From: a virus
Lineage: Duplodnaviria > Caudoviricetes
Strand: one strand, 5' to 3'
DNA length: 54,755 bases
IMG/VR virus record: IMGVR_UViG_3300004369_000851
Span: 1-54,755 of that record
Positions 16,727 to 50,003 of the stretch are shown one piece after another (position 1 is the first letter of the stretch; each line of letters opens with the position of its first letter). Under the pieces are notes generated by a model, which made no database searches, was not told the DNA's origin, and saw nothing but the letters and a program-made list of their open reading frames with translations. The translations under genes and the position numbers were made by a program.

Positions 16727-19309
16727 TTGAATAATACAAATCTCGAACCAGCCGTTGCTGAGTTCAAAGCCCTAAACGGCCAAGTCAGCATTGATCAAGC
16801 CACTGGGGTGGTTGAGTGTTTTGTTGCAGCTATAGGTAATAAAGACTCGGTCGGGGACGTCGTGCTTCCAGGAGCCTTTAACGCAAGCCTCAAGAGAAGG
16901 AAGCCGCGTGTTGTTTGGGGCCATAACTGGAATGAGCCAATTGGGAAAGTTCTTGAAATCTATGAAGTAGGTTCTAGCGACTCACGCCTTCCAGCCAAAA
17001 TGAGATCTGGTGGCGTTGGTGGATTGTATGCAAAGGTTCAATTCAATCTTGCATCAGAAAGAGGACGAGAAGCGTTTGCCAATGTAAGCTTCTTTGGCGA
17101 AGAACAAGAGTGGTCAATTGGCTACAAGACCCTTGATGCGGTCTTTGAACCAGGGCAGAACGCAAACCTACTTAAAGAAGTTGAACTTTACGAGGTAAGT
17201 CCTGTTTTGCACGGCGCCAATCAACTTACTGGGACAATAAGTATCAAAGCGGATGACGCAAACAAAGCTGATGGCGATGGGCCGTGTTGGCCTGGCTATA
17301 AACAAATCGGGATGAAAAAAGGAAAGAACGGAAACATGGTTCCAAACTGTGTCCCGATTAATGCCAAAGATGAAAAGTCTGTATTGAAAGATCCAGATGG
17401 TGGATTGACCGCAGCTGGTCGTGCACACTTCAGGAGAACCGAAGGTGCAAACCTAAAACCTGGAGTTAAGGGCGCAGCAGACACTCCAACAAAAATGCGA
17501 AGAAAAGGTTCTTTCTTGACACGGTTTTTCACCAACCCCAGTGGACCAATGAAAGACACCAAGGGACGTCCAACTCGACTCGCCCTTTCAGCCACGGCGT
17601 GGGGGGAGCCAGTTCCCCAAGATCGATCCGACGCGCTCAAACTTGCCGCAAAGGGCAGGAGATTGTTGGATCGTTACGCAAACGCAAAAAAATCTGACGA
17701 CTCGGAAATGCAAGAAAAAACGATTATTTACGCAACCGACGAAATAGGCGTATATCCAGAAATTAAAGATCTAACCAAGAATCACATAAACGATGTTTAC
17801 TCTGCAAGCATCTCGCTTGCCAGACCCCAAGATTCTGAAAAAATACAATTAACGCAGATACTTTCTCGCCACTTTGGTGGTGTACCACGAATCGTGTTTG
17901 CTGACGAAAATATTATCATTGCCGAACTAAGAAGAGACGGCGTAACTGAAACATTAAGGATTCCGTACCATAATCAAAACGGGGAATATATGTTTGGGAC
18001 AGCGCAAGCGGTAACCGCTCAAACCGTTTACACACCAGTTGATGCGACGCAACCTGGGCAGGTATTTGCTAACACATCAGAATCCTCTGAAAAAATTGGT
18101 TGTGGATGTGACTCTTGTGGGAAATCTATGCCCTCATGGGAAACATTCAAAGAGCACAATTCAGGGAAACACCTATTCATTCACAGCGTTGATGACATTG
18201 GCTTGTTTAGCGCCATTAACGAAATGTCAGAAGAAAAGCAACTTGATATTGAGCTTCTTGATGTTGGCTTAGCGATCAAAAACATACAGGACATTGATGA
18301 CAATTTATACGATGAACTTATTGAGTTCATTGATGACTTTGAGGAGAAAAACCTTAGAACGATTAGTCGTGGCACTCGCTCTATCGCTAAAAGAGTGGTG
18401 CCATTTAAGCAAAGCGCATACGATGGAAACAGCAATATGCGGGTACAAGACGGCACCGTTCACGAACGGCCAGCAAAACCGAGGATGATGCCAGCCGTTC
18501 CAGAAGAGCAACCAGTTCCCGAGAAGGTTCCTGAGCCCGTTCCCGAGAAGGTTCCACAACCAGTAAGACCACCGGCACCACATCGAGATCCCCAAAGACA
18601 ACCTCAAAGAGATCCACAGAGAGAACCAGCCACACCCGTAACGGTGCCTAAACGCCAACCCGCTCACGCCGTAACTGGAGCTATGGCTGGAGAAATGCCT
18701 TCTACATTTTGGCTCCTCAACGAAGCCACACAAGATGCTGAAATCTATAGAAAACGAATGAACGGCGCCACCCTTCAAGAAATGGCCGACAAACTGAAAT
18801 GGTCAAGGAAAAAAGTACGCGCGGCCGAACAAAGACATATGGCAAGAGTGAGGGCAAAGAAAAAAAAGGTTTTGACCGAAAGTGGGGTTGAATCAAAGAC
18901 AATTGACGACGACCTTCAGATTATGCTCCCACTTGCCTCTATTTTTAAAGCCAAGTCATTGATTGATGGGTTTGCTGATGTAAATGGTTTCACTCTCAGC
19001 GCAAACGATGATGGCATTTTGATTAAAAATATTTCGTCAATAGATAAAGAAATTATTCAGGAAATTGCCCACATAGCCGCAAAGGCAGCGGGCACTCGAA
19101 CCAACATTCCAGGTCGCAGACGAATGGTGCAACAGAACAACCCCCAGATGGGTTATCCTAAAACTGGTGGTTTAACGGCTATTTCTAATAAATATAATTG
19201 TATGGTTTCCGGCGAAAAACGCATGAAGCCATGCTCTGGTTGCGGCAACCCTAAGGGTTGTCTGTCAGAAACTATGCAATTTAAAAGGAACAAAAAAAAT
19301 GGCAAATGA
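16727..19309 (+). CDS. HK97-family prohead protease with long multidomain C-terminal extension
   Basis: DSVGDVVLPGAF, WGHNW, EWSIGY, LYEVSPV in the first ~175 aa; then a CWPGY...VPNCVP module, a DUF6321-like module (GGLTAAGR...RLALSATAW), a Pro-rich repeat, an HTH and a Cys cluster. Confidence 0.9.
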   Translation: MNNTNLEPAVAEFKALNGQVSIDQATGVVECFVAAIGNKDSVGDVVLPGAFNASLKRRKPRVVWGHNWNEPIGKVLEIYEVGSSDSRLPAKMRSGGVGGLYAKVQFNLASERGREAFANVSFFGEEQEWSIGYKTLDAVFEPGQNANLLKEVELYEVSPVLHGANQLTGTISIKADDANKADGDGPCWPGYKQIGMKKGKNGNMVPNCVPINAKDEKSVLKDPDGGLTAAGRAHFRRTEGANLKPGVKGAADTPTKMRRKGSFLTRFFTNPSGPMKDTKGRPTRLALSATAWGEPVPQDRSDALKLAAKGRRLLDRYANAKKSDDSEMQEKTIIYATDEIGVYPEIKDLTKNHINDVYSASISLARPQDSEKIQLTQILSRHFGGVPRIVFADENIIIAELRRDGVTETLRIPYHNQNGEYMFGTAQAVTAQTVYTPVDATQPGQVFANTSESSEKIGCGCDSCGKSMPSWETFKEHNSGKHLFIHSVDDIGLFSAINEMSEEKQLDIELLDVGLAIKNIQDIDDNLYDELIEFIDDFEEKNLRTISRGTRSIAKRVVPFKQSAYDGNSNMRVQDGTVHERPAKPRMMPAVPEEQPVPEKVPEPVPEKVPQPVRPPAPHRDPQRQPQRDPQREPATPVTVPKRQPAHAVTGAMAGEMPSTFWLLNEATQDAEIYRKRMNGATLQEMADKLKWSRKKVRAAEQRHMARVRAKKKKVLTESGVESKTIDDDLQIMLPLASIFKAKSLIDGFADVNGFTLSANDDGILIKNISSIDKEIIQEIAHIAAKAAGTRTNIPGRRRMVQQNNPQMGYPKTGGLTAISNKYNCMVSGEKRMKPCSGCGNPKGCLSETMQFKRNKKNGK

Positions 19310-20827: not shown

Positions 20828-23800
20828 TTGAATATGGAGGTCGCCACAGAGAGCCATATGGAAAATACAGAACCATTTGAATGCTGCCCATCTATCGGGC
20901 GTAGGGTGTCACGAACTGTCCCAATCAATAACAGGGAACCCGCAACGGCCAAAATCAAGTCTGCCAACCCCGTTGATAGGATTTTTGAAAAACTTTCTTC
21001 AAAACCCTTAAAGCCATTATTGCCATTCGGGGAAATGTTATTCAAAGCCGACAAGGATGAAACCCAAAAACCAAATCGGGAAAAAGCAACAGTTCCAGAA
21101 GATAGTGTTAAGCCCTATAAGCAGTGGTTGGAAAATTGGGAACCTGGCGATCCACTCCCTTTGATTCCACCAGGCTTCAGGGCAAATTTGTGTTCCAATC
21201 TTGGTGGCAAACTTTTAACAAGTTCTGAACGCAAAGAACGCCCATTGTTTGCGCCAATGAATGAATCCGAAATTGCCGCTTACGGTGAAAAAAGTCTTGG
21301 CTCTAGTCTCAAGGACACCGTCTACACACTTCGAGCAATGGTTGCAAAATCAAGAGGGTTATGGGTTGACTCTAAAAACAAATTGCGATGTTCTTTTGGT
21401 CCAAATGCCAACCAATACACCGACGAGTTTGGTACCAATTGTTTGGTGCCAGTCAAAATAAATGCACCTGAAGCCGTATCGTCTGGAGCAAGACTGGGAC
21501 GTCGAACCGCCACAGCAGGAGTTGTTGGCGCAATGGATGCCGGAGCAAGAGATTATCCAGACGGCTATGGCTTGGGGGGCATTGCTGGTGATAGGGAGTT
21601 TAGAACACGAGGTCGCGACAACGTGGCGATGGGTGAAGAACAACGTCGTCAGTTTAGGGACGGACTTTTTACCCTTCCAAGCGGTAAGCAAATTACCCAC
21701 TACAGAAGAAATGGGTTTTGGGGAAGCACTATCGGGGATGAAGGTCGTAGAAACTTTTTAGATTCGGTTCAAGAACTTTTTCCAAGCGTAGATCTCAAGT
21801 CAGCAGGCGAGTTTTGGGATGGATTAATTACTGAAGAGTCACCTCTCACTACTTTGCAAAAAGTACAACTTGAAGAAGTGCTTGAAGGATTTTTTCAAAG
21901 CATGTTTCAGGAAGCCAAAGCCAATCCGGAAGAAGCCCGATGGATAACAGCTTTTAAAATTGATATGAGCATAAATTCGGGCGCAGAGGTAAAACTTGAT
22001 GGCGATGCGGTATCTGGTACAAACAAAAAGGGACAACGAATTGCCAACCCCAATGAACCAATAAGTGAATCTGGATTTACGTTTGATATGAGTTTCAATC
22101 CAGTTGAATTGTATTATTTATATCAAGGCGCAAATGTAGATCAAAAACATACAGCCGTTGGAAATATGATACAAAGCACAAGATCGTTTGGTCTATATAC
22201 AGCGGTACACGAATTTGGTCATATAGGTCACTTCTCGCGATCAATGGCAAATATGGGATTTACCGCAGCCACTTTGGGTAGAACAAAAAGTGGTTCATGG
22301 AAGGTTGATCTACGGAACATACAAAACCCAAACAATCTCCCGCAGGTTGCCCGACTACAGGCAATGGCCAACAGACTTGAACAACTTCAGACTAGTTCAC
22401 GGTGGACGGTTTTACCTAGCGGTCAAAGAGTCCGCATTTATGCAAAAGATGTCAAAGAGGCAGTGCAAGAATTTTATGGCGAGCTGTTTGACACCGTCAC
22501 GCAAGACTTGGGCGGAACGGATCAAGACTTTGCGATCCTGCAACGCTTTACTGGCTCAAAATATTCTCGAGAAAATAGATTGGAAACAAGAGCTGAGGCT
22601 TGGGCCGCAGTGAGATTGTTTGGACCAGAAGCAATAAGTAAATTTGCAGAACAAGAATCCGCATACCAAACCCAAAACCCTAGATTTTTCCCAAATCCAG
22701 AAAGTCCAAGTCAGATCCAAGATCAGGTATATCAGGCGATGGATAACGTGTTCGGCCCCAAAACACGAACACAGCGGCACGAAAGACGAGACGCTTCAGG
22801 GTTTAGCCCGGTAACGGGAACTGCTGGGGCAGTGACAACACCAAGGGGTGTTTCGCGTTTTATGCCCACGAGTTTGCGCTCATCACAACCAAACAACAGA
22901 CCCAATATACCGATGCGCACACCAGGGCAAAACACCCCCGGTGCAAGTGGGCCAATGAGGGGCAACATATCTGGCGTTGTGGGCGCAATGGCGAATCACG
23001 ACAACAATAAAACTATCATAAAATATAGACCAGACTCAAAAGCTGCCGAGGCAAAAACAGCAGAAAATATTGTTGACATGCTTGCGGCGTCAAAAGTCCT
23101 TGACGAACCCATTGATATTAAACGTTTAACCATTGAGCAAAGAAATGCGTTAAGTAAAATTGTAGAGACAGTAGGAACATCAATTGACACGCAGGAGGAC
23201 ATTAGTCCAGACAATTTAAGCCGAATATCTCTTAGACCTAGCGGATCCCAACTTATGGGTATGGTCACAAAAGCTGGTGAAATTTTTGCAAAAACCCAAA
23301 AAGCAGATCCAGATTTTAAATCTCGAAAGCGTTTAAAAAACAAAAAAGACAAAGTTGCTCGATACGAAAAAGCCATAGCGGATCTTGAAGATGTTTTGAA
23401 CAAATTTAAAAAAGGTAAAGACAATACCCGTCTTGCTCAAACTGCAACCAAGTGGTCGTTCGGCTCTTGGGGAAGTGAATACGTCAGCGATATTTCCAAT
23501 TCGACTTCAGAAAAATCATTTCTTGATGCCGTCAAGAGAACACTTGATGTCTACCGCACCAAAACACGGACACTAAAAGGTGATATAGCGTTTGCTCCGA
23601 TCTTGATCCCTGACTCCAGAGAGCGCAGGATTGACACTATGTCCAACAAACGGATTGTTAATGAAATAAAAAACTCTGGTCAAGAACACATCCTTGGAGT
23701 TCTTTCAGGGATGGATCAAGTTAATAAAAGATTTCCTTGGATGAGGGGTTCTTCGGTAATTAGTTTTGGGATACGAGGAAGGGCTCTGGGTCGGAGAGCC

Positions 23801-26800
23801 ACATATGTTCGAGAAGAGCCACGGATTGCAGAAGTGGGTAAATTTAATGGTGGTCAAGCACTTACTGAGGGTTCTGGTACTGGCAAAATACTCCCAACAA
23901 TAGAATTCACGCTTATCGCATCAGAACCAGAATCAGAATCGGATTACGTTTCGGAACCAAACGATCGCGATGTTGGAAAATTTGGATCGACAAGAGTAAG
24001 TTCGGCCAATCTTGCTTACCACGAATCAGGGCACATAGTTGAACAGGTGCTTATGGCAAGGGGATTGGGGTTGCAGGTCGGGCCAAATTCTCCAACAATA
24101 CTTAGGCAACTCAGAGATGTCGGGCCAGAACTTGGCGACACCGTTGCTGGTGCGTTGTTTGCTTTTAGTACAGGGAAAGCCCTTGATGCCAAAATTGATT
24201 CACTTGACTCAGTAGACGAATTGGCTTTGGTGGAGAGTGTGGGTCAAAGAGTATATTTGGATCTGTCACGGGATCGAACTCGCGGCCCTTCAAATTTCAG
24301 AACAAGATTTCTCTCTGGGTTCTGGACTGCAACTGAGACCAAAAACGGTGTCAAGACGGGAGAGTGGACTTATTCGCCATGGCGAAGAGGTTTGATTGAC
24401 CTGGGCGGGGATTCCAAAGATGTACGCGCAGATTTTGCGTCAGCAGAAAAAATATTGAGCGATGCCCTAGGTTGGGATATAGACGAACACCCAATATCAA
24501 ATTTACAAGAATTATTAGTTCAGGCGGAGCAAACATCCCTTTACGCTCAAACCAGTGAATCTGAGGCTTTTGCTGAACTATTTGCCCTAATGATGCAGAT
24601 TGAGCAATACGGACAACTTGATCCCGACGGTCAAAATTCAAAAAAACCACAGCAACTGGCAAAAATGATGGCGGACGCAGTGGATAATTCCGTGTCTCAC
24701 GATAAGCCTGTTGCTTTGTCTCTCAACCAAAAACAAGAATTGCAAAGATTGCAAAAAAAATTAAATTCGCTTGCGGTGCTTGCTGATGGAAGCCGATTTG
24801 ACGATACTGATCTTTCTACGGAAAAGCGTTCTAGTGACAATCCAGCGGTTGACACACGACAGATAAAAATAATTGATTTAGATAACGAATCAATATCTGG
24901 AACGGATGTTAAAATACCGTATGAGTGGGAAAACAGCAATGGCCTAATTGGTCGAATGGCATCGTTCCGAACTTCAGACGAAAAGAATTTCTTATTTGAC
25001 AAAGACGGGAAAGTAATCTCACCCAAGACGGGGAGGCAAGACGGTGGGGTTGTTGGCCGTATGGCTGATCGAGTTGTTTTTGTTGAAAGCACAGAGCTGG
25101 ACAGCCTTAGATTTGCCCCCAGATACGAAACACCAACATTCACAAGGAACGGCATCGTGGGAGTGATGCACGATGAAACAAATCTAAACACAACAACATT
25201 TGCCAAGTTGAGGGAACAGGGTGAAAGTTTTAACTCTGCATTTATTAGGTCTGGAGGAAAATTACAAAAAAAACTAGTTCCCCTATCGTCAAAACCAGAT
25301 ACTGGGTTACACCCAGTCAGCTGGAATGATAAGACTGGCAAATTTGACATAAGTGGCGAAATAACATCAATCACGATGGCGTCAGACTCGCCCCGTGGGG
25401 TTGTTGGCCGCATGGCTGACGAACATGGTTTTTCTGGAGAACTTACTCAAGTGCGAAACGCATTTAAGCGAAACATAAAACCTCCTGAAAGAATTTCAAT
25501 ACCAAGTGAATGGTTTATTCAGGATCCAAAAATAGATGCCGAAAAACGAGCAAGACAGGCATTCCCGGATATACACATGCGCTATGAAGAACAATATGGT
25601 ATGCGTCGGTATGTGCCAGCCACTGGCAAATTAAAAGATGATGCTAGCCCTGTCGATAAAATGCAGGATATGGACCGTGCTAGTTATTTTATGTGGCGCA
25701 AATACTGGATGCCAAGCGTTGCTTCCGCAAAATCCGAACTTGGAAATGTTTTATATTATTGGCGCAACAGTTACTCCCAAAGCAGGGCTCTTGCTCTAGC
25801 TGTTGGTGGCTCTTCAGAAGGTATTGCAGAAACATACAGAGAAGATGCAGATTTTTTTAAAAAGGCTGAAATCTTAAGAAAAGCCCTTGATGTCGCCCCA
25901 CCAATGGGTACAAAAACCTACAGAACGATGCGCCTGACAGATGATGTTGGCCAGTCGGCCAATGTTGGTGATGAATTAAATTTTACTGCGGCATCTGTTG
26001 CTTGGAGCGAAAAAACCGCTATGGCGTACGATCTTGACGAACTCAGTATGAGGGCCAATGTTCCAGACAAAATACTGATGGAATTTCCAGCCGACACCCG
26101 AGGTATTTTACACGACGAAATGGGATTAAAGCAAGAGGGGAAATATTACGCCAAGAATGGGGATCAGGCACCTGTTGAGGGAATTGTTTCGGGAAGATTT
26201 AAGGTATCCAAAATTGAGGAAAGAACTCTCACAAACCCCAGAACGGGCGAGGATGTCAAAAGAAAAGTCCATGTTCTGGAAGCGGTTACTGGACGTATGT
26301 CTAGCCCGCGTCAAATAAAGTCAAATATTGAAGATGCATTTGATAAAGCCGATCTAGACATAGATATTGCCGACGAGCGCATTTATGGCCTTGAAAAAGC
26401 CCTTGCTGACTTTAAGAAATCTGGATTCTGGAATGGTGCTGACTACGGAGTAGTGCTAGGGCTTGGAAATAATATTATTGACGGAGATAGTCGTTTTGAT
26501 TCAGATATTGATCCAGCCAACCTAACCCCGGATCAACTTACAATACGAAAAGTGTCCAGAAACGACATGGTTGAGCGAATTGAAAACAAAATAGAACTTG
26601 CAAAAATCGAAAGTCGTTTAAGAAAACTCATAGCAGAAAAAAAACAAATTCGTGCATCGCAAAACACGCTTGATGTTGAGGATATTCCAGAGGAAATACT
26701 AGAACAACTCCAGCGTGAGCAAGAGGGATTAGAGAAGTTGTATCAGTCCGACCAGAAGGCATTTTGGTCAATAGTCAACCCAGACGATAGTGAGTCTATT

Positions 26801-28512: not shown

Positions 28513-29175
28513 ATGGTCAATAAAATAAATCAAACATGGAGCATCAAAATAGTTGACTCATCAAACGATGTGTTGCAAGAAAAAGCGGGCGGGCCAGCTG
28601 GGGCAGTGATCCCACAGGAACGTATAACCGGAGATGTTCTACGTGGAAGAGGGCCTAGGAGGGGCAATCTTGAGCGCTTGCTTAGATACTGGCGACCAAT
28701 TATGAAAAAACCTGGTGGTTTTAGTAGGTGTCGCGTCATCCTCGCAAATCACCCAGAGCTTTATCCGCTTGAAAGAATTTGCGCATGGCTTCATCACGAG
28801 ACCACTGGTTTGTGGCCGAATGAAGGATGCCATCATCCAAACATGAAAAACTGTAAAAAGAAAATGCGCGGCGCCGTTAGTGGTTCGATCTGGAATGACA
28901 GTGAATTCAATGCTAGGTTGGCAAAACTTCGTTCTCGTGGCGGAAGAAAAATGCTTCAATCAAGTGGCATCAAGTCTTACGACGAACCGTTTGAACCAGT
29001 AATTACACAGGACGATTTGTCTCACGGAATTAAAGTTTTGCGAGACTTTATTGAAATGGAACCAGAATTTATTAAATATTTGAATAATGACGAAAATTGG
29101 GAACACGAGCACGGCCACATAATTGAAAACGGCCAGAAAGTAAACTATGAAGACAGTCAATTTTTTGGAAGCTGA
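28513..29175 (+). CDS. Hypothetical head-module protein with Cys/His cluster
   Basis: 220 aa with GAGG RBS; LLRYW...GGFSRC...CAWLHHETTGLWP resembles a module seen in actinophage head proteins. Confidence 0.65.
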   Translation: MVNKINQTWSIKIVDSSNDVLQEKAGGPAGAVIPQERITGDVLRGRGPRRGNLERLLRYWRPIMKKPGGFSRCRVILANHPELYPLERICAWLHHETTGLWPNEGCHHPNMKNCKKKMRGAVSGSIWNDSEFNARLAKLRSRGGRKMLQSSGIKSYDEPFEPVITQDDLSHGIKVLRDFIEMEPEFIKYLNNDENWEHEHGHIIENGQKVNYEDSQFFGS

Positions 29176-40900: not shown

Positions 40901-43900
40901 AAATGGAAGACAAAGATGTTGATATGTTGTGGAAAGTTTTCATAGTTCCAGAACTATTAAAGACGGATGGTATGGCGTCAAAAGAACCATTGCCATTTGT
41001 TTTGGATCTTAACACCGCCGAAAGTTTAAGAAACTATGCCGAGTACAGAACAATGAAAAGACTTGGTTTGGAAAATGGTGTTTCCGATAAGGAGTTTCAG
41101 GATGCCATTGATGAACTATTTATTGAGGCTCCGGCCTATGAATTTAGAAAGTTCATAGAAGAACTCAATGAGTCATACGACAAGTTTAAATCAACTGGAT
41201 TATTGCCAGGTGATTTTTTGCATACCGAATTAATAGATCCAAGCACAGACAGGTTTTATACAAAAGAAAAATGGCGGGAACTATTCACCGAGGCCTCCAA
41301 CAAATATGTGGAAGTGAATAATGATTACTTTCCGAATGTTGAACGTAATAAAGCTGGGGATGCCTATATGGGTTGGTTCAACATAGGGCTTCACTTGGGC
41401 TACATCACCCCGGAAGACATAGAGAATGGCAAAGAACAAGCAGATGATTTAGAAGAGATAGATCCGCTTCCAGATCTTGATCCAAAAGATCTCCATTTCG
41501 ATCCCAGCGACTCAACAAAAATTAGAAATATGCCTGGGTTTGGCTGGATTTACAGGACATTTGGCACCAACGCAAAAAACTGGGCATATTCGCTTGCTGA
41601 AATATATCATCCATACGACATACAGCAAGAGCGATATACGCCAGGGCTCAAAGAAGAAATTGCTCAATTTGATAAATATGACTGGGATAATTTGTATGAG
41701 TTAATTAAGAGAGAAGAAGCTGGCGAAACGGAACAAGATGAAGATCTGCCTTTTTCTGGGAAAACAAGTAGATATGAGAAATTGAGAGAACAGAAAGGTA
41801 AAGCAGCAAAGGCTCAACAAAAATTACTTGATGGCAAAAATGCAACTTCTAAAGCGCTAGTAGATTCCATTTGGGATTTATTTACCACCGACGGATTAAC
41901 AGACGAAGAGATCGCCGCGAAAATGCAATATGAACCACTAGTTGTTTCAAGTGTACTCAAAAGAGAATCAAAAGCACGAGGTCTGGCGAGAGGCGCATTT
42001 GATAGTCAACAAAAAATAAATACGCAAGGAATGAAAAATAGAGAAGATGCTTTTCAGGCGGATTTAGTTGCTGCGGAATTGGCTCGACTTAAAAAACTAG
42101 GCACAAATGCAGACGGTTATTTGGATGACCTACGTAACTCGCTTGAGAATTACAAAAACATAAACAAACAAGCCAACTCATCTTATAGTCGAGAACGCGC
42201 ACGGTTTGCTTCTTTGGCAACACTTGGTCGCAAGCTTGTTGAGGGTGCACCCGATGGACGCAAAGAATGGGATCCCAAGAAAGAATCGGCAGCCTCTTTT
42301 AAGAATAGATGGTTGAAATATATTTCTCAAAACCAACCAGCGCTTGCCTTGATTTCTGCTCAAATTACCGCACAGGGCTGGGATGAAGGCGGTAGAAGAA
42401 GTGCATCAAAACGAATTTTAGATCGATCTAGAAGAATGATAGATCAAATAACAGAAGAAATTGAAAAAATAGAGAATTTGAAAAAAATGTCAGATGTTGA
42501 AAGGATACGCGCACGACATCAAATTGTTTCGCTTTCAGCGGCTAGAGAAGCTGCCAAAAAAGCCGTGCAGGGTCTATATCCCAAGTTGACCGAGGATGAA
42601 ATTCAAACACTGCTTAATGATGGCGGAGTAACCGGAAAAATGGCGGCTGGTCTGCGTGGCGCAATGGCCGGCAGAAAGGCAAAAAAATTAACAGAATACT
42701 CAGAACGCAATCGCTGGGATAAACGTGGCGCACTAAGAAGAGCGGCTGATCGTTTTTCTGGAGCCAAAGCACGGCCAAGCGTAATGAGGGTCGTGGACTT
42801 GCTTGACAACCCAGACAATGTTCTTTCGGTGGGAAATCAAAGACCTGCAAGAAGCCGCAGAAATATAGGAACTGCCGCAATTGATTCAACCCCACGAATG
42901 GACAAAATGAGGGTTACTAAACTGCTTGGCAGAATTAACAATCAAGATTTTGGTCAAAAACGATCCAGCGCAGAGCGTGCACAGATAAAAGAATTAAGGC
43001 GCAATGCTAGAAAATTAAAAGTAAATATTGATAGATATTTTACCGCTGAAGACGACGACGAAGATGTTAAATGGTCGTCCAATGATTGGTCGTATGCTAA
43101 AAAATCACCGATTCGTGGTGCCGATATGGTTATTTATCGCAAGAACCCAAACATCAAAAACCCCGAACAAGCAATTGAGGTTTTGGTTATATCTCGCAGG
43201 AGCGGGCCGTTTACTGGAGCAAGAGCCCTACCTGGAGGTTTGAATGATGAGGGCGAAACGCTGATTGAGACAGCCACTCGAGAAATGAATGAGGAAGTTG
43301 GAATTTCCGCCGATGGAAGAAAAGTAGTCAACCTTGGGATTGTTCAATCCAGAGACTGGGATCCGCGTTTTGTTGAAGGAGTAACCGTTCAAGGTATTTC
43401 AATTGAGGTTCCATACGAGCAAGTTGCTGTTGCTGGAAGCGACGCAATGAAAGCCGATTGGGTGACCCTAGGGGAATTAATCAACGGCGACAGTCATATT
43501 GCTTTCGGGCACGCATCGTTTATGAGAGAGGCTTTTCAATCACAAGCACCAGTAACTTCTGAAAAATTGGCTATTCACGAAAAAGCAGCACGGATCAGAA
43601 ACAGGCGTCTGATTGAAAAAATTAACGCAAAGAGGTCACAGGCTGGACAAAAATTATTCCCAGTCGTATCTGATGAGGATGTCAGAAATTCATTTGACGT
43701 TATTCGCCCTACGGATCCACGGTATATGGTTGCAAATGACCCCGAGTCTGGCGTCCGTGGCGCAATGGCTGGAAGATCATCGGAACGATACGACATCAGG
43801 GTAAACGATGATAAAACTTTCAGCATAATTGATACGCAAAACAACAATTTAATAATAGCTGGACCATTCCCAACCCGAAATCAAGCCCTCTACGCAGCTA

Positions 43901-45117
43901 TCAAAAAAGACAGAGATCCAAGTTTTGATCCGCAAAGATGGGTAAGAAAACCTAAATCTACAAAATCAAAAAGAAAAAAGAAAGCAAAAAAAACACGAAC
44001 AAAAATAAACGCAACACAAGCTCCTGTTGAAATCAACGAGCAACTAAGTTTTGATGACATTTGGCGTCTTGAAAAAGTAGACAAACAAACTCAGGGTGGA
44101 GTGACTGGGAAAATGAGTGCCCCGGAAATGCTTGCAAAAATTAATATGCAGGCGCCAGACGGCAGCAATGTGGACCCAGATGCAGACACCTTGAGCTCCC
44201 ATTCGTGGGATAATAAAGCCAAGGGTCCTATGTCTGGGGCCGATATCCCTGTAACACCTGCTCGACACTCCGAACTTTGGGTGCCCTATACAAGCGCCGT
44301 ACAAAGTATAGTTCCAGATTCCGCAGCAACCGCCGCACCAATATTTTTCATAATCGGAGGGCATCCTGGTTCTCTTAAATCATCGGTTAGGGAAATTGGA
44401 GAAGCGGGTATACCTGACAGAACAAAAGCAATAACAATTGACCCCGATGAAATAAAACTTGTTATGCCAGAATGGACCCCTATGGGCAACATGGCGGGGT
44501 CGTTGACCCATGCGGAGAGTGTTCAATTGTCCGCATACACACTCTCTGAAACGGTTGCCGAACAGGTCGCAAAACTGAAGTTTTCAAAACAAGGGAAAGA
44601 TATTGTTCACGACTCAATTGGGCGTTTAGAGAGACCTGAATTACTCAGTCCAGCTCGCGCCGCGAAAGACGGTGGCTACAACGTTGTGGTTTATTATTTC
44701 ATAACCGACAAAACAGAAGCAGAGAAACGAATATCTTACAGAGCGAAAATGACTGGTCGGCGTGTTCAGGCTGGAGCCTGGGACAGCGCCCATTCTTCGC
44801 TAAGAAATACATTTAGGGGTCTCACGCAAACAGTCAACCAAAGCCCAAATAGGGGCGATGTATCAGGGTTGGCCGACGTTATATATGTTTACGACACGAG
44901 CAACGCTGATGACATTAAGAGGATTGCCGTATGGAGCTCTAGGACCCTAGATGAGCTTGAGTTTATGTTCGGCAAGGCTTATAGACAGGAACTTGAAACG
45001 CAATACACTGCTGCAGCCAATCAAGGACGCCGTACAGCGGGTAGCGCTGGTCAAACATGGCGATTAAACAATGCCAATTTCAGACTGACTCCTGCCTCTT
45101 ACAACATTGTCCCTTAG
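37999..45117 (+). CDS. Giant polyvalent protein C: DUF3721-like, DUF5872-like, HicA-like, HTH, Nudix hydrolase, Zeta-toxin kinase
   Basis: ARVRARQINCIG...WMPC; YTKPEMREKIK...PGQWSARKAQ; GKGSH; Nudix box GLNDEGETLIETATREMNEEVG; GGHPGSLKS...IDPDEIK...THAES...RAKMTGRRV. Start may be ATG 38014. Confidence 0.8.
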   Translation: MWTELMESKSLITDTYPMIGLDEKNITGKSRRLRPTDPNVFSNPDSARVRARQINCIGIRKYNSTSGGYVWMPCTNESDYRRQMGTSHSGRLQRRREIQDEIRRFVRGKGHDDVDQKSGAYTKPEMREKIKNRIMAGSKGGKPGQWSARKAQLLAQEYRKSGGGYKGGRTRTQRSLSRWSKEKWTTSSGKPANQSGGMRRYLPQAAWAKLTPGQVRAANRKKIQGSKLGSQYVRNTEAAMDAARSSQKQILELMISEKALGRGVGSYAASRAIDRPRIGRKKRGRGIIATGGMPGKAKPTGSRISRDDDGWADEGTTNPVWVGLPSDNPQMMPAVPEEQPVPEKVPEPVPERIPQPVRPPIPQPSRPRTPSVPVPTRVRESAAERMRQIDSPNVVDPVVGAFRFRYKENYRLIKQSTDNGAKVLQGAGKGSHLRLRRRVPDGTDGVMKNIYTTVNGTVAYDALRFQLIEQGFITAEQVPYKAEKKINTLSAIDKNIIKKVLDDMIEAKNIKLSSDGYITEFPGVRAIALRVREQLQRSISTEDIANFLRNEKQNPVLAQAINRTDRKIQEIGQKEAVWSEWRELIFERLRSVGMAETRQPIPNPETLDWLNGQDQTDIHTFWNAWIKPEILANEKLYSEEILDFVKSHKGNKAPKKILSKDYLGVNPIDSLSSNDREIFYGWNRSLDLDRDPFSGISSEVLDSIYLDLNQLQAQSPQRGVYSDTNINAEVLQLHRELYNAELSPQFFEAITTPDRKVSAQFYEFAVWRQKEIDAGRYVDDIDDMGDVVGPVIGSMGSGRGDGSRRRIRRSDSGGAVGAMAATPDDRRRDFAIKKRRWQSGIISQAVLDNQSRLERVKNDPTNTETALFPEFMNRFQYAELQSITGLGAGQAWAHRVIDELFGEMVKEWGPNETLAYGELKPFNLWDSPMSALDIENLEENKRTIAKEFIEEAIKLDPNSPFAQYDINQMEDKDVDMLWKVFIVPELLKTDGMASKEPLPFVLDLNTAESLRNYAEYRTMKRLGLENGVSDKEFQDAIDELFIEAPAYEFRKFIEELNESYDKFKSTGLLPGDFLHTELIDPSTDRFYTKEKWRELFTEASNKYVEVNNDYFPNVERNKAGDAYMGWFNIGLHLGYITPEDIENGKEQADDLEEIDPLPDLDPKDLHFDPSDSTKIRNMPGFGWIYRTFGTNAKNWAYSLAEIYHPYDIQQERYTPGLKEEIAQFDKYDWDNLYELIKREEAGETEQDEDLPFSGKTSRYEKLREQKGKAAKAQQKLLDGKNATSKALVDSIWDLFTTDGLTDEEIAAKMQYEPLVVSSVLKRESKARGLARGAFDSQQKINTQGMKNREDAFQADLVAAELARLKKLGTNADGYLDDLRNSLENYKNINKQANSSYSRERARFASLATLGRKLVEGAPDGRKEWDPKKESAASFKNRWLKYISQNQPALALISAQITAQGWDEGGRRSASKRILDRSRRMIDQITEEIEKIENLKKMSDVERIRARHQIVSLSAAREAAKKAVQGLYPKLTEDEIQTLLNDGGVTGKMAAGLRGAMAGRKAKKLTEYSERNRWDKRGALRRAADRFSGAKARPSVMRVVDLLDNPDNVLSVGNQRPARSRRNIGTAAIDSTPRMDKMRVTKLLGRINNQDFGQKRSSAERAQIKELRRNARKLKVNIDRYFTAEDDDEDVKWSSNDWSYAKKSPIRGADMVIYRKNPNIKNPEQAIEVLVISRRSGPFTGARALPGGLNDEGETLIETATREMNEEVGISADGRKVVNLGIVQSRDWDPRFVEGVTVQGISIEVPYEQVAVAGSDAMKADWVTLGELINGDSHIAFGHASFMREAFQSQAPVTSEKLAIHEKAARIRNRRLIEKINAKRSQAGQKLFPVVSDEDVRNSFDVIRPTDPRYMVANDPESGVRGAMAGRSSERYDIRVNDDKTFSIIDTQNNNLIIAGPFPTRNQALYAAIKKDRDPSFDPQRWVRKPKSTKSKRKKKAKKTRTKINATQAPVEINEQLSFDDIWRLEKVDKQTQGGVTGKMSAPEMLAKINMQAPDGSNVDPDADTLSSHSWDNKAKGPMSGADIPVTPARHSELWVPYTSAVQSIVPDSAATAAPIFFIIGGHPGSLKSSVREIGEAGIPDRTKAITIDPDEIKLVMPEWTPMGNMAGSLTHAESVQLSAYTLSETVAEQVAKLKFSKQGKDIVHDSIGRLERPELLSPARAAKDGGYNVVVYYFITDKTEAEKRISYRAKMTGRRVQAGAWDSAHSSLRNTFRGLTQTVNQSPNRGDVSGLADVIYVYDTSNADDIKRIAVWSSRTLDELEFMFGKAYRQELETQYTAAANQGRRTAGSAGQTWRLNNANFRLTPASYNIVP

Positions 45118-46150: not shown

Positions 46151-47485
46151 ATGTCAGAAGATCAATCAAGAGTTCGCGAGCTTCAAACAGCATTGCGAAC
46201 AAAAATGGCGGACAACAAGTCAATCGCCGATTCATTTAAAATCGAAGATGGCACAGTTGTTGTGTCAACAGAACAAAAATCAGCATTCGACAAGAACATG
46301 TCGGACATCCGCGAAATCAAGGGCCTCATTGAGGGTCTTGAATCAATGGAGAGTGTCTCGGCTTGGGCTTCAGAGCCACAGAGCGATTCAGTTGCAGCAC
46401 AAGAGGCAGCAACCCCAGTCGCTCAAAGCTACGGAGTAAAGAGCATCGGTCAAGCGTTCCTTGACTCACCAGAGTTCAAAGCTTTGGGTGGCGGTCGTAA
46501 TGGTGTGAACATGAATTCACCATTCAACTACAACGTCAAAGATGTGTTTGCAGCAATGCCAACATTCACTGGCACGCCGCTCTCGAGCGTTGATCAATTT
46601 GGAACATTCCAAAAAGATCCAATGATTAGCCCACCAACACGCACAAAGCGTATTCGTGATCTTTTCCCAGCACGCTCGACGACAGCTGCCGTGATTGAGT
46701 ACTTCCGTCAAGTCGGTTACACATCGCCATCGGGTCAGACTCCGCCAACAAACGCTGCTGGTATGGTCGCTCAGCGCTCAAGCGATGGGACGGCATTTGC
46801 GGCAAAGCCACAGTCGGGATTGAAGTTCATTGGCCAACAGGCTCCTGTTCGCACAATGGCTCACTGGGAAGCTGCACACAGAAACGTTCTTGCTGACGAG
46901 CCACAACTACGCTCGATCATCGACAACGAACTTATGTACGGTCTTCGTCTCCTTGAGGATGCGCAGTTGTTGAACGGTGATGGAACTGGTGAGAACCTTC
47001 TTGGTGTTCTCCAGACTCCAGACATCCAGACTTACAGCTGGTCAGCTGGTGCATATACACCGGTACCAGACACCAAGGCCGATGCGATTCGTCGCGCCGC
47101 AACCTTGAGCTTCTTGGCTTACTACGAGCCAACAGGCGTTGTGTTGCACCCAACAGACTGGGAGCAGATGGAACTGTCAAAGGATCTCAACGGTCAGTAC
47201 TTGGTCGCTATTTCGGTAGCCCTCGGCGGAACACCACGCTTGTGGCGCATTCCTGTTGTGGAAACTCCAGCAATGGCGGCAGGCACAGCACTTGTTGGCG
47301 CCTTCGGTACAGCTGCACAGATCTACGACCGTGACGGCGCAAGCATCCGAGTCAGCGAACAGCATGCAGACTTCTTCGTCCGCAACGCAATCGTTGTTCT
47401 TGCTGAACAGCGCATGGCTATGGCGGTCAAGCGTCCAGAAGCATTCGTTAAAGTAACATTTAACGCAGCCCCAGCCGCACCATAA
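46151..47485 (+). CDS. Major capsid protein, HK97 fold
   Basis: N-terminal coiled-coil delta domain; IRDLFP, EDAQLLNGDG, LWRIPVVET, FVRNAIVVLAEQR...RPEAFV; GGAGG RBS. Confidence 0.96.
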   Translation: MSEDQSRVRELQTALRTKMADNKSIADSFKIEDGTVVVSTEQKSAFDKNMSDIREIKGLIEGLESMESVSAWASEPQSDSVAAQEAATPVAQSYGVKSIGQAFLDSPEFKALGGGRNGVNMNSPFNYNVKDVFAAMPTFTGTPLSSVDQFGTFQKDPMISPPTRTKRIRDLFPARSTTAAVIEYFRQVGYTSPSGQTPPTNAAGMVAQRSSDGTAFAAKPQSGLKFIGQQAPVRTMAHWEAAHRNVLADEPQLRSIIDNELMYGLRLLEDAQLLNGDGTGENLLGVLQTPDIQTYSWSAGAYTPVPDTKADAIRRAATLSFLAYYEPTGVVLHPTDWEQMELSKDLNGQYLVAISVALGGTPRLWRIPVVETPAMAAGTALVGAFGTAAQIYDRDGASIRVSEQHADFFVRNAIVVLAEQRMAMAVKRPEAFVKVTFNAAPAAP

Positions 47486-47609: not shown

Positions 47610-50003
47610 ATGGCACTTAAACCAATTAGAAAAATTATGTTTGACCCTAATGCCAAAAATGGGGACGGCGATTTTACGGTTCAGGACAACACCGCATTTG
47701 AAAGACCAGACCCACGAAGATCTGGGGTGGTTGGCGCCGTTAAATTCCAGACGCCTCAACTGCCACCAAGACCAGCATCGCAACGCCGCGAGGGGGGTGG
47801 GGGGCCTGCGTTTATCTCTCCAAATAGCATTAAGAAAAACGGAAGACTTAAAACTTCAGAAATTTTTGAAGAGCCCGCAATCAAGGCATTAGACGAAAAA
47901 CAACAACTAGCTTTTTTGGGTGTCTCCTCGTCGGTGTTAAAAAAATTAAAAGAAAAAGACTCATCCATAGATGGTTATCTTGCAGACAAAATAGCCATAA
48001 CAACATTCGGAAAGCACCCAATAGATATATGGGGAGATCTTTGGCTGGATGAACAAATTCTCAACCCACAAAAAAATAACAAGCCGCCAAGAATATTAAC
48101 TCAAAGAGAAGAAGAAGTTTTAGATCTTAGGGCCACTGGACTCAATGACACCCAAATATCCAAACGACTTGGTATAAGTGGAGAGAGAGTTCGTCAAATA
48201 AAACTGAGTGCCCTAAAAAAGAGAGATCAATTTTCCTTAATAGAAGACGATGAAATAGATAGAAAAATAAAACCACAAACGGCTAGATCTGTCGCCACTT
48301 CTATCTTTTTGGATACTGGCACAAGCCCAACTGGTTTATTGGGTCGCATGACAAGTGATGATCCAATAGATGACCCGATGTTTGAAAGCCCAGCAGAGCG
48401 AGAAGATCGAGAACAGGCGTTCGGTGACTTCGTTACTGAAACCCTGCTTGCACCCTGGGAACAGAGCTTCAGTGAAAGAGAAGGCCGGAACCCAACCGAA
48501 AATGAGTTTTTGGATCACATAGACTCACTTAAGCTTGACGAAGTTGCCAGCGACTTTGAATTAGAAACAGGTATTTCGGCGTGGGGTTTAGAATTTGACG
48601 AGGAAGGTAACGCGTTCACGGCCGAGTGGGCTCATGCTGGATTTGCGTCGGAAGATGAATACGACCAATGGTTTGACGGCCCAATGAGCGACATCATTGG
48701 AGAAACTCGACCTGGCAAAACACAGGGATCGCTTTTTGATGACAATAAATGGGAAGATTACAGAGAGAGCGCTCAATACACCACATATGGTGGCGATCAG
48801 GATTTGATAACTAGAAACTCGGAACAACATCAAAAGTTTGCTGAATGGACCGCAGGCAAGGATTGGAAACAGTTTCACAATTCGCATTTTGATTGGTGGG
48901 CTTTTCCTATTGACGAGATGTCCAACACATATGGTCAACAATTCGCAATCCCGCCAGAAACAATAACAAAACTTAGAGCAGACCGAGATTTCCAAAAAAA
49001 ACTAAGCGATAATTTAACAAATGCCGCAAGAGCCTATGGCTGGGATATTGCGGAGAAGAAGTGGATAGGCGACGACATAAGAGATGAGAGTCAGGTACCA
49101 GGACCCCTTAGTCAAATTCGTCTTTACAAAATGGCCAGATCGGCTCTTGTTCTTGGCCACTGCTCTCACTTTAGGTCGCTTCAGAGAATGTACGATAATT
49201 TAACATCGTTCGGTTGGTACAAAGGTCAGGACGAAGGTTTTTGGAGCAAGGATCACCCTTGCACGGAAGCGGGATCTAATGTAATCGGATCTATGGGTGG
49301 GAACAAGCCAGAGAATGTCACTGGGGCAATGGCTGCAGGGGATGTGATTGCCGCTAGAAAAAAAAGGTCAGCGTCAATCAAAAAAAAAATAATGAAGTCA
49401 TTATCAACACTTTTAAAAAACAATAAAGTATTGCCTTTTGATGCGGGAGATAAGGATAACTACAAAAGACTACGCGAAATGGGGGCATCTGTAAAATCAG
49501 CCAAACTGGCAACAAGTAAAACCCCAATTAGTTTGTCGGAATTTGCAGATCCAATAGTCGCAACAAGCAACTGCTTTGACGCGTCCGCCACGTTTGGTGG
49601 TCTACTTATTCAAAAGGGTATAGCAGAACAGGGTGAGGTTTGGTTGAGAGAGGTGGATGCACCTGGCTATGCCGATGACGCAGGAACGCACTATGTCGTC
49701 CATATTGGACCCAAAAACAGTAAAGATGCGATCATAGTTGACTTAACTTTAAGACAATTCTCCCCAGCTGCGGATTTTCCTTGGATCGGAACGGTGCAAG
49801 AATACAAAGAATTAGGATACAAGACACCAGCAAACGATCTAGACGAAATGAATTGGAACACAAACAATCCAGGAGACGAGCAGGTGGGGTGGCCCCCAAT
49901 TGGTACCCGTTTTGAAGAAATTAACCCAGATGGAAGCACGAATATGGTTGGGCTTAATTTTGGTGTACCGTATGAGGACGGGGATCTTAATGAAAAAAAA
50001 TAA
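47610..50003 (+). CDS. Polyvalent protein D: tag module, sigma70-r4/LuxR-like HTH, OGFr/DUF1810-like domain, papain/transglutaminase-like domain
   Basis: FDPNAKNGDGDFTVQDNTAFERP; LTQREEEVLDLR...LGISGERVRQI; HFDWWAFP; NCFDAS...THYVV...IVDLTLRQF. Confidence 0.7.
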   Translation: MALKPIRKIMFDPNAKNGDGDFTVQDNTAFERPDPRRSGVVGAVKFQTPQLPPRPASQRREGGGGPAFISPNSIKKNGRLKTSEIFEEPAIKALDEKQQLAFLGVSSSVLKKLKEKDSSIDGYLADKIAITTFGKHPIDIWGDLWLDEQILNPQKNNKPPRILTQREEEVLDLRATGLNDTQISKRLGISGERVRQIKLSALKKRDQFSLIEDDEIDRKIKPQTARSVATSIFLDTGTSPTGLLGRMTSDDPIDDPMFESPAEREDREQAFGDFVTETLLAPWEQSFSEREGRNPTENEFLDHIDSLKLDEVASDFELETGISAWGLEFDEEGNAFTAEWAHAGFASEDEYDQWFDGPMSDIIGETRPGKTQGSLFDDNKWEDYRESAQYTTYGGDQDLITRNSEQHQKFAEWTAGKDWKQFHNSHFDWWAFPIDEMSNTYGQQFAIPPETITKLRADRDFQKKLSDNLTNAARAYGWDIAEKKWIGDDIRDESQVPGPLSQIRLYKMARSALVLGHCSHFRSLQRMYDNLTSFGWYKGQDEGFWSKDHPCTEAGSNVIGSMGGNKPENVTGAMAAGDVIAARKKRSASIKKKIMKSLSTLLKNNKVLPFDAGDKDNYKRLREMGASVKSAKLATSKTPISLSEFADPIVATSNCFDASATFGGLLIQKGIAEQGEVWLREVDAPGYADDAGTHYVVHIGPKNSKDAIIVDLTLRQFSPAADFPWIGTVQEYKELGYKTPANDLDEMNWNTNNPGDEQVGWPPIGTRFEEINPDGSTNMVGLNFGVPYEDGDLNEKK

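Follow-up and report, generated by a model that had tools for sequence, protein, structure and literature searches.

The stretch of DNA analysed here (the window) is the entire IMG/VR virus record IMGVR_UViG_3300004369_000851 (Caudoviricetes; 54,755 bp), and the element in question is a short protein motif, G-[VLI]-[VTI]-G-x-M-[AGS], that recurs in giant proteins of its head gene block. Genes were mapped by PHROG and Pfam scans of the called open reading frames (ORFs; 46 ORFs, 17,730 residues). Between the portal and S78-protease genes and the HK97-type capsid gene, the head block was found to encode giant polyvalent proteins. The protease ORF (16727..19309, + strand, 860 residues; Pfam PF04586 and PF19846) starts with an S78 prohead protease domain (residues 1-175; Peptidase_S78 match at E 7e-12; PHROG head maturation protease, PHROG 80, E 1.5e-29), followed by DUF6321 (221-292), a middle region, a degenerate leader element (about 557-605), a Pro-rich spacer, the motif copy VTGAM at residue 649 and a tail resembling a helix-turn-helix (HTH) domain. 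Protein A (20828..28135, + strand, 2435 residues) has eight modules parted by seven conserved motif sites (Pfam matches, HExxH patterns and an AlphaFold2 (AF2) model), and contains two HExxH zincins (HEFGH at residue 461, HESGH at 1065), an HTH (2232-2262) and a C-terminal J-domain (DnaJ, 2325-2386, E 1.5e-19). Protein B (31222..37383, + strand, 2053 residues) is a giant head-block protein with no motif copy. Protein C (37999..45117, + strand, 2372 residues; Pfam, and an AF2 model of residues 1500-2372) contains DUF3721, DUF5872, a Pro-rich stretch, unassigned modules, a NUDIX module, a small alpha/beta module and a Zeta-toxin-like P-loop kinase. The HK97-type major capsid protein (46151..47485, + strand; PHROG 10) has an N-terminal delta-like region. 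Protein D (47610..50003, + strand, 797 residues; orthologues of 539-718 residues) consists, in order, of a leader, a relaxed motif, an HTH (Pfam Sigma70_r4, 163-204), a motif, a module of no assigned identity, two motifs and a lineage-specific C-terminal module with a C...H...D pattern. At least two unrelated effector domains are thus present per polypeptide, as expected of polyvalent proteins: HTH, DnaJ and two HExxH in A, NUDIX, Zeta_toxin and DUF5872/DUF3721 in C, and sigma70_r4 plus others in D.

A recurring motif of the V-V-G-A-M type had been reported in a first-pass annotation, and all 21 copies listed there were recovered at their positions from the translations, a regular-expression scan and a codon listing. 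Nineteen of the 21 fit the expression [VILA][VILTR]G.M, the two relaxed copies being VVGAF at 39190 and GVVGAV at 47724; five further matches absent from that list were found in the tape-measure ORF (1393, 1237 and 835, minus strand), at residue 443 of protein A (22154) and at residue 289 of protein C (38863). Enrichment of [VILA][VILTR]G.M was assessed with 300 shuffles per protein over the 46 called ORFs. The called proteome held 24 matches against 2.97 expected, and the enrichment over the rest of the proteome was confined to five of the 46 ORFs: protein A (10 observed, 0.38 expected), protein C (7 and 0.28) and protein D (3 and 0.12), in each of which the observed count was reached in 0 of 300 shuffles, the tape-measure protein (3 and 0.52; reached in 7/300) and the protease ORF (1 and 0.15; reached in 41/300). 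The other 41 ORFs, including the 2053-residue protein B (expectation 0.31), the portal and the capsid protein, gave zero matches. When a leading G was demanded, 15 matches were observed against 0.21 expected, and an unbiased gapped-pattern search on A, C and D together returned G..G.M as its top pattern (15 against 0.69). The consensus of the copies is G-[VL]-[VTI]-G-x-M-[AGST]-[GAS]. Because codons vary among the copies, as had been claimed and as the codon listing bore out, the comparison of sequences indicates that the motif is a feature selected at the protein level.

All sites in proteins A, C and D and in the protease ORF are on the + strand; sites are named below by protein and residue. 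The copy in the protease ORF (VTGAM, residues 649-653, 18671..18685) has an equivalent at about residues 610-740 in the protease ORFs of 20 of the 23 related loci that encode the first zincin of protein A (zincin-1). In protein A, VVGAM at A232 (21521..21535) lies at the junction of the N-terminal module with zincin-1 and appears in orthologues as GLIGAM, GLVGAM, GIAGSM, GVAGAM and similar forms; VVGAM at A717 (22976..22990) lies between zincin-1 and zincin-2, where near orthologues have LTGAI, LSGAL and LTGAL. Further along is a beta-rich module, bounded on its N-terminal edge by LIGRM at A1373 (24944..24958; GVSGKM is aligned in locus L120) and on its C-terminal side by VVGRM at A1525 (25400..25414; GLTGAM, SLTGAM and ISGRM in homologues). 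VTGRM at A1820 (26285..26299) precedes the module at 1825-2196, and the BLAST blocks of five homologues begin at 1815-1829. LVGAM at A2192 (27401..27415) precedes the HTH module, and homologous modules end in GVTGAM, GVSGKM or GLTGAM; VVGQM at A2309 (27752..27766) stands directly before the J-domain, the site preceding which is kept in L025, L021 and L018. The remaining matches in A are of another kind. AVGNM at A443 (22154..22168), inside the zincin-1 domain beside HEFGH, is a chance match not kept in 14 orthologues; IVGVM at A1443 (25154..25168) is an in-domain look-alike that forms a beta-strand in the AF2 model and is replaced in homologues by G.LVG..YDD without M; VVGRM at A1408 (25049..25063) is motif-like, absent from homologues and of uncertain status, in an internal loop of the beta-rich module.

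Orthologues of protein C in three related contigs share about 37% of aligned residues with it, and the places aligned with C791, C815, C1544, C1919 and C2035 are of the GLTGAM, GLTGAI or GLTGAL type; across these 15 cells the motif G was identical in 14; the M was identical in 9 and replaced by I or L in the others. The doublet VIGSM (C791) and AVGAM (C815) (40369..40455) corresponds to LTGAM/LSGAM and GLTGAI/GLTGAM in the orthologues. In the doublet VTGKM (C1544) and LRGAM (C1552) (42628..42666), the former is kept as GLTGAM in 3/3 orthologues and the latter is not kept (LRRAK, IRGAS, LRGVS). VRGAM at C1919 (43753..43767), after the NUDIX module, is GLTGAL, GLTGAM or GITGAI in orthologues, and VTGKM at C2035 (44101..44115), before the Zeta module, is GLTGAI in 3/3. 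The relaxed VVGAF at C398 (39190..39204) lies past the Pro-rich stretch, and the equivalent region of the L007 orthologue has GLIGAM 36 residues after a leader; ATGGM at C289 (38863..38877) is not kept in orthologues and is probably a chance match. In protein D, the relaxed VVGAV at D40 (47727..47741) is six residues after the leader (orthologues NLTGAT, SVVGRY), and LLGRM at D243 (48336..48350), after the HTH module, is found as TGLIGRM in four orthologues (L007, L008, L009 and L010). The doublet VIGSM (D558) and VTGAM (D570) (49281..49331) precedes the appended C-terminal module, and three distinct orthologues (L006, L007 and L008) stop four residues short of D558.

The tape-measure protein (2..3070, - strand, cut by the contig end; PHROG 167) has matches at residues 560 (1379-1393), 612 (1223-1237) and 746 (821-835). 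Counterparts of 560 and 746 were found in two orthologues (49% and 41% identity), and 612 is unconserved; these orthologues were taken from the records of related loci, a pattern scan for such relatives having given none. The tape measure of the complete related genome G009 has no motif copy. Besides A, C, D and the protease ORF, the tape measure, not a head protein, also carries the motif, with two sites conserved. In all, comparison of the sequences suggests that about 18-20 of the copies are genuine separators, another 3-6 being look-alikes.

Module counts placed seven conserved sites at the seven junctions of A, and a site or doublet at each junction of C and D. The AF2 model of C1500-2372 (17-row alignment) had a mean predicted local distance difference test (pLDDT) score of 72.7, and its 4/4 sites fell in segments with pLDDT below 50, which cover 22% of residues: C1544 and C1552 in segment 44-75 of the model, C1919 in 419-429 and C2035 at the end of 486-538. 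These segments part a helical end, the NUDIX module, the small alpha/beta module and the Zeta module. The model of A1300-2435 was weaker (mean pLDDT 63.2) and rested on a shallow, partly misaligned alignment in which several fragment ends were stacked at site 2192; the supposed ART region (model residues 231-520) was unmodelled, and Foldseek with this model returned matches to J-domains only. In it, sites 1525, 1820 (at the end of the low-pLDDT segment 484-525), 2192 and 2309 lay in low-confidence linkers, 1373 at a domain edge, 1408 in an internal low-pLDDT loop (model residues 102-110) and 1443 in a strand, so that 8 of 11 sites over the two models were in low-confidence linkers (4/4 in C, 4/7 in A). 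The overlay on predicted domain boundaries accordingly agreed with the first-pass expectation for these eight and departed from it at the A1408 loop and A1443 strand, with A1373 on the edge. The further claim that no copy lies inside a recognisable domain was too strong, A443, A1443 and A1408 being inside domains, though no Pfam domain holds a conserved site. Retention of the motif despite domain swapping was also observed: in the giant proteins of L025, L021 and L018 the J-domain module is placed elsewhere and still has GITGRM, SISGRM and SITGKM, respectively, in front of it, and the D orthologues stop before D558. These sequence comparisons support the view that the motif marks module junctions and stays with modules on shuffling. 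As for the module labels assigned earlier, Pfam confirmed S78, DUF6321, DnaJ, sigma-70 r4/HTH, NUDIX and Zeta; the zincin labels were supported by HExxH and invariant residues, without Pfam matches; and ten fragments cut at motif sites gave no Pfam match at E up to 0.5 for the ART, HicA-like, OGFr-like or papain-like labels.

More than 160 related loci were collected, and motif counts in the family were made on the first 85 of them. The exact expression used for the window gave 98 matches in 476,760 residues (0.21 per 1000 residues, about background); the broadened pattern [ILV][TSVI]G.M was adopted after orthologue alignment had revealed LTGA[MIL]. With this pattern, 88 matches were found against 7.4 expected in ORFs of at least 1500 residues and 13 against 3.4 in ORFs of 800-1500 residues. 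On the + strand, ORFs below 800 residues were at or below background (8 against 7.7; 2 against 5.6). On the - strand, ORFs of 300-800 residues had 3 against 2.5, and a mild excess in ORFs below 300 residues (11 against 4.9) came mostly from one small protein family recurring across loci. The single complete genome examined, G009 (173,962 bp, with direct terminal repeats), had 19 matches against 3.2 expected, 18 of them in three head-block proteins.

Separators of other types were found in some of these relatives, namely GP[VI]GxM[AS] or GPT[AG]SM, and also GPTGSMS. The lineage of L001-L004 has no GxM motif; KLSSG[KR] occurs there 16 times in one 3094-residue protein (L001:562-9846) and once in its neighbour (17 in total, 0.15 expected), and the sites in L001 flank sigma-r4, a unit of ArdC-N and MPTase, and UvrD. 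In L049 (1062-9353), STRS occurs nine times against 0.12 expected, and its sites at 724 and 987/998 flank a Zeta module at 766-995. The sites of L132 flank Mor/HTH (699-756) and sigma-r4 (865-909) Pfam domains. Lineages with head-block genes split into ORFs of 700-860 residues have no motif. In L001, L106, L109, L132, L133 and L144, S78 is itself the N-terminal module of polyproteins of about 2,400-3,600 residues (L001:562-9846; L132:9995-19564; L144:9995-20818, for example), which carry 16 KLSSG sites in L001 and 6-9 motif sites in the other five; in L001 the modules after S78 are sigma-r4, ArdC-N, MPTase-PolyVal and a UvrD helicase.

The leader that precedes the first site is an element of about 30 residues, [R]FDP[ND]AxD[GA]DxDGxVQ[ED]xTxFERP (short form FDPNAxDGDxDG..VQ..T.FERP). 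It is found at the N-terminus of protein D (FDPNAKNGDGDFTVQDNTAFERP, residues 7-33, 47628..47708, + strand; recognised by alignment and by a hidden Markov model (HMM) at E 7e-18) and of many head-block proteins of relatives, and inside protease ORFs at about residue 550. In the protease ORF of the window it is degenerate (PFKQSAYDGNSNMRVQDGTVHERP..., 18395..18541, + strand; alignment, HMM E 1.2e-17 at 557-605) and leads into the Pro-rich spacer, and such a spacer, then the motif, often succeeds the leader elsewhere. The Pro-rich stretch of the protease ORF (MMPAVPEEQPVPEKVPEPVPE..., 62 residues, 18479-18664) is 63% identical to residues 329-382 of protein C (54 residues, 38983-39144), and in either protein a motif copy follows shortly after it. 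Of 30 leaders in the local family, 15 were within the first 60 residues; a strict motif followed within 90 residues in 13/30 (12.7% at random positions), and a relaxed motif within 20 residues in 13/30 (14%). A wider search with the leader matched 862 representative protein clusters at E up to 0.001, of which 131 remained at E up to 1e-10. The best 149 proteins of this wide set held 198 leader occurrences, 93 of them N-terminal, many being succeeded by another conserved repeat (ERPxGTRI.D..G...RG....R....VD.DGN.V.YTPTY). In Pfam the leader matched only EF-hand_5, in 3/18 members with a best E of 0.12, and belongs to no Pfam family. A likeness to the bacterial TSP3 repeat was not confirmed by the Pfam search.

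Two proteases of the head block were considered as the processing enzyme. Zincin-1 (A237-721, 21536..22990, + strand; HExxH...E) is always directly after the first separator of A orthologues. It matched 27 ORFs (19 unique), and H225, E226 and H229 of HExxH and E350/E354 (module numbering) are invariant, the two Glu being about 125 residues past HExxH. Nothing credible was found for it among Pfam and PDB sequences, and the Atlas leads, to ATLF and M90 zincin clusters, were weak (scores up to 0.90, recognition below the mark), so that the module appears, from its sequence, to be an undescribed gluzincin family. PF18818 (MPTase-PolyVal) was absent from A, B, C, D and the protease ORF at E up to 0.01 and gave no match in 16 zincin-1 modules at E up to 1; it is present, with ArdC-N, in L001 (E 1.8e-39), and the KLSSG lineage has MPTase-PolyVal in place of zincin-1. 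Among unique protease ORFs, the motif is carried by 23/23 loci with zincin-1 (in 20 in the protease tail). Eight loci lack zincin-1 over at least 2000 visible residues downstream; seven of these had no tail motif and one a single weak match, and their downstream counts were at background. These counts are confounded because zincin-1 is itself in A and the loci are related. Gluzincins usually prefer a hydrophobic P1' residue, which would fit a cut at x|M with M, I or L. On the other side, G009 has the motif and no match to the zincin-1 HMM (a remote search without positive control), its A-like protein having another HEFGH.

In favour of S78 are its universal presence, its location in the head block and its fusion to motif-bearing polyproteins. 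The capsid-type site [KR][ST][IL]G was not enriched in A, C or D. The gluzincin of A (cutting x|M) was rated slightly above S78 (cutting M|small) as the candidate enzyme. The papain-like C-terminal module of D, proposed in the first pass as a further protease, is absent from orthologues that keep the motif, which excludes it as the general enzyme. On the fragments cut at motif sites, Pfam gave no match to an adenain-like or any other cysteine protease domain. A complex prediction of zincin-1, the S78 domain, Zn and C residues 1529-1571 scored 0.00; it had no controls and was counted neither way.

As a separate observation on the capsid, 50/50 capsid proteins have G[RKQ]NG.NM[PVIS][SA]P about 45 residues before KR.RDLF, with K[ST][IL]G about 30 residues earlier; either the K[ST][IL]G or the G.NG.NM segment is, from the alignment, a candidate capsid maturation site, and if the capsid is cut after Met, S78 would be linked to a Met-specific site. 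The capsid protein of Brevibacterium phage Cantare has a motif-like AIGGM three residues before AKSLG.

The best-supported function of the motif is proteolytic processing, the copies being recognition sites of a protease in virion polyproteins, and a probability of roughly 0.55 was assigned to this explanation. Under it, G-[VLI]-[VTI]-G-x-M-[AGS] would be a selected separator, present once or twice at essentially every module junction, at which a phage-encoded endopeptidase would act on the polyproteins, and on the C-terminal extension of the protease ORF, to free the single effectors (two zincins, HTH/sigma-r4-like modules, J-domain, NUDIX, Zeta-like kinase and others of no assigned identity). 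The leader, preceding the first site in this sub-family, would be a propeptide or targeting piece removed by the first cut, and related lineages would have the same architecture with a site of their own (GP[VI]GxM, KLSSG or STRS). The analysis shows enrichment, selection at the protein level, conserved position, linker location, lineage variants and the fusion of S78 to polyproteins; cleavage itself, packaging in the capsid and the identity of the enzyme are what we infer.

In several respects this would resemble known systems. Head cargo of T4 and of SPN3US-type phages is cut at a recurring motif by prohead proteases, according to the parts of the reports consulted (PMC5694885, PMC10052503, PMC7411985), and, on the same footing, capsid-targeting N-termini are described for T4 IPIII and P1 DarB (PMC9024508). 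As with gp21 of T4 and gp175/gp245 of phiKZ and SPN3US, the head block has a prohead protease, large internal or ejection proteins contain a short motif many times over, and an N-terminal leader is followed by a site. The protease here is, however, of the S78 (HK97/assemblin) type and not of the T4 gp21 type, the sites part whole effector domains instead of trimming propeptides, and sister lineages have switched the motif without a change of protease. The cleavage consensus of T4 and phiKZ has an acidic P1, which the present motif lacks. The adenovirus protease consensus is (M/I/L)XGX-G, and the present pattern shares with it a hydrophobic residue four before the presumed cut, a Gly two before it, any P1 and a fixed P1'; adenovirus-type precursors are cut inside the capsid, as would be the case here, and such proteases are sometimes embedded in the polyprotein. 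This likeness is one of pattern only, and no cysteine protease domain was detected here. Also close are the polyvalent proteins, multi-effector polypeptides of phages and conjugative elements with zincin, HTH, NUDIX, Zeta-like and J-domain modules, for which zincin autoprocessing was proposed and whose assemblin-like peptidases were stated to be always C-terminal, in the parts of that report consulted (Iyer et al. 2017, PMC5512222). The same parts describe no cleavage motif, and S78 is N-terminal in the polyproteins of about 2,400-3,600 residues described above. A literature search that took in part of PMC5512222 found no published processing or loading signal with such a motif for polyvalent phage proteins.

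Several findings weigh against processing. In the alignment of 50 capsid proteins, the delta/N-arm region lacks the motif, whereas capsid and cargo share one site in T4 and phiKZ. S78 is nearly invariant (68% mean column identity, 88 invariant columns listed) whether a lineage uses GxM, uses KLSSG (where S78 is 66% identical to that of the window) or has no motif, and the KLSSG lineage also shows no change in the maturation region of its capsid protein (K[ST]IG and GRNG.NM segments); the type of separator therefore does not track S78. For the gluzincin, the association of motif and zincin-1 is weakened in that zincin-1 lies in the motif-bearing protein A and the loci are mutually related, not phylogenetically independent. 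The two conserved tape-measure sites would be unreachable for a protease confined to the capsid. Site A1373 is at the start of the first strand in the AF2 model, about 10 residues past a low-pLDDT segment. BLAST block ends were not significantly enriched near sites (within 15 residues in 48/390 cases against 36.2 +/- 17.5 expected, the observed value being reached in 484/2000 permutations). Conservation in the flanks of the C sites is close to the average for the protein, so that the motif is no island in unconserved sequence. In the wide set, a strict motif followed the leader within 100 residues in 3/198 cases against 2.2% at random positions, and the coupling of leader and motif is therefore restricted to this sub-family. 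The encapsulin motif, which is similar, docks and is not cleaved. Of the interpretation given in the first-pass annotation, then, the selected separator stands, at the junctions of multi-domain head-block proteins next to a prohead protease and kept in diverged orthologues; against a simple model of the T4/phiKZ type stand the motif-less capsid, an S78 and capsid region that stay constant where the separator is KLSSG or none, and the conserved tape-measure sites.

The encapsulin likeness is the basis of the main rival explanation, by which the uncut motif would bind the inner face of the HK97-fold procapsid as a shell-docking (cargo-loading) peptide, like the motifs of Family 2 encapsulins, and, by holding giant proteins and protease to the shell at numerous points, would see to their packaging; on our analysis this is possible, though clearly less probable than not. 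In the parts of the reports consulted, Family 2 encapsulin cargo has a conserved GPxGLGT that is repeated, in disordered regions and between domains (PMC8346489), and GPxGxGTxxL is present in multiple repeats, binds at the three-fold axis and improves loading without being essential (PMC11550324). The first-pass statement that the motif is not known from described systems holds in that no match was found, and has to be qualified by this published look-alike. A short Gly-rich motif in disordered Pro/Gly/Ala-rich regions of the cargo of an HK97-fold shell, at N-termini and between domains, would be common to both; pattern and context resemble each other, and the sister lineages have GP[VI]GxM[AS] and GPTGSMS. 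In the window 8 of 11 modelled sites have a disordered context, the copies are repeated, sometimes in tandem 8-12 residues apart and some past Pro-rich spacers, leader and motif at N-termini resemble a cargo-loading domain, the protease ORF, which must enter the procapsid, carries a copy after a spacer, and docking would require no co-variation with S78. Yet the register differs (G-P-x-G-L-G-T against G-h-[TSV]-G-x-M-[AS]), with a conserved Met here and positions 5-6 off the published consensus, and the comparison is between a phage and a cellular compartment. One site per junction, over proteins of 2,000-5,000 residues, is unexpected for a docking element, which encapsulin cargo has in a single linker or at one terminus; capsid proteins share 66-89% identity between lineages whose separator is GxM, KLSSG, STRS or absent; and the two conserved tape-measure sites likewise speak against docking. 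Docking and cleavage may coexist, as a targeting sequence and a cleavage site do in T4.

It is also conceivable, though unlikely, that the motif is neither cut nor docked and serves as a handling signal common to proteins leaving the virion (head cargo and tape measure), either as an ejection hinge or threading element or as a chaperone site for host Hsp70 acting with the J-domain of A. Head cargo and tape-measure proteins are both ejected in other phages, the motif occurs in proteins presumed to be head cargo and, conserved, twice in the tape measure, protein A ends in a bona fide J-domain, and the motif is short, hydrophobic and Gly-containing. We know of no precedent for such a signal. The invariant G and M, and the replacement by KLSSG or STRS, suit the pocket of an enzyme or receptor better than a hinge or an Hsp70 site, and copies are lacking in the G009 tape measure and in protein B, which is also a giant head-block protein. 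At the nucleotide level, the sites could be internal Shine-Dalgarno-plus-ATG restarts for separate translation of the modules: the M in the window is always ATG, the next residue is, much as at a native N-terminus, mostly Ala, Ser, Gly or Thr, and GGN codons stand 4 and 13 nt upstream of it. The Gly codons are, however, a mixture of GGA, GGC, GGG and GGT without a GGAGG-like bias, orthologues swap M for I or L (GLTGAI, GLTGAL), and the upstream h-[TSV] is conserved as amino acids while its codons vary; we regard internal translation starts as ruled out by codon usage and the replacement of M, with a negligible residual probability.

In a broader and rather doubtful reading, large uncultivated phages of a widespread kind would deliver early effectors as self-processing injected trains. 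Each lineage would mark its polyproteins with a cleavage code of its own (G-h-[TSV]-G-x-M, GP[VI]GxM, KLSSG or STRS); the EF-hand-like leader would load them into the procapsid, which in some lineages they would enter as fusions with the prohead protease; a gluzincin belonging to a new family, packaged alongside, would cut both them and the tape measure at x|M, and only once they had been ejected into the next host; and the code would switch with exchange of the embedded zincin (zincin-1 with GxM, MPTase-PolyVal with KLSSG). Such trains would be a phage counterpart of RNA-virus polyproteins.

The separator gives a testable handle, being present at every junction, surviving domain shuffling and differing between sister lineages; for this phage alone, the termini of about 20 effector products can be predicted exactly from it, and with its help thousands of giant phage ORFs that lack annotation could be split into functional units. 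It also points to a possible new gluzincin family and a very common leader as parts of a cargo system. A docking peptide would be the first phage counterpart of encapsulin cargo loading and would bear on the relation of encapsulins to HK97 capsids, and either outcome would provide a natural system of tags by which foreign proteins could be directed into HK97-type capsids.

As for the genome, no terminal repeat was found in the window and its left end truncates the tape-measure gene, so that the window is a genome fragment. Related records are of 31-84 kb with completeness ratings of 21-57%, and from these and the size of G009 a genome of about 150-175 kb was estimated, of which the window would be about one third; the source is a large uncultivated tailed phage. 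A DNA search of a phage collection with the window gave no match. An HK97-type head module was found in synteny with G009, comprising the large terminase (12788-14095, - strand; PHROG/Pfam scan), the portal with a MuF/gp7-like C-terminal part (14331-16628; PHROG/Pfam scan), the S78 protease and the HK97-fold capsid protein with its N-terminal delta-like region. With its counterparts in Cantare and Gordonia phage GMA6 the capsid protein shares 46% identity, and by sequence the capsid genes are closest to those of Actinobacteria myoviruses. In cultured relatives of the Cantare/GMA6 type the head blocks are mostly of separate, smaller genes, and in Cantare and ChisanaKitsune neither motif enrichment nor the leader was found. 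An acidic protein of 491 residues is listed in the map between the protease ORF and protein A.

Protein B has long TP/PT repeats (TPTP x18) and no separator, and its G009 homologue (1466 residues) is also without the motif. Residues 808-860 of the protease ORF (19148-19306) match an N-terminus (MGYTS..GLP...) that in ten other lineages belongs to a gene of its own, the next one along, and from this match the C-terminal end of the ORF is a gene fusion or a shifted boundary. At portal residues of about 420-480, a disordered linker before the MuF-like part ends in a segment conserved in all lineages ([KR]P[NE]TM[TS]E / EGMTA), which, from its conservation, is possibly a processing site of a different kind; a match to the separator in this linker (GLTGPV, portal residue 439) was not kept in 25 portal orthologues and was dismissed as chance. 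Finally, a Cys-bracketed element (RC..GPNANQ[YF]TD....NC, RCPPETTAAGQFTN....GC, RCQEGFQFGGQFTNEQYSTC) recurs in three head-block proteins and their relatives, at residues 186-210 of A (about 21380-21460), at about residue 205 of B and at about residue 145 of the ORF at 29147-31225.

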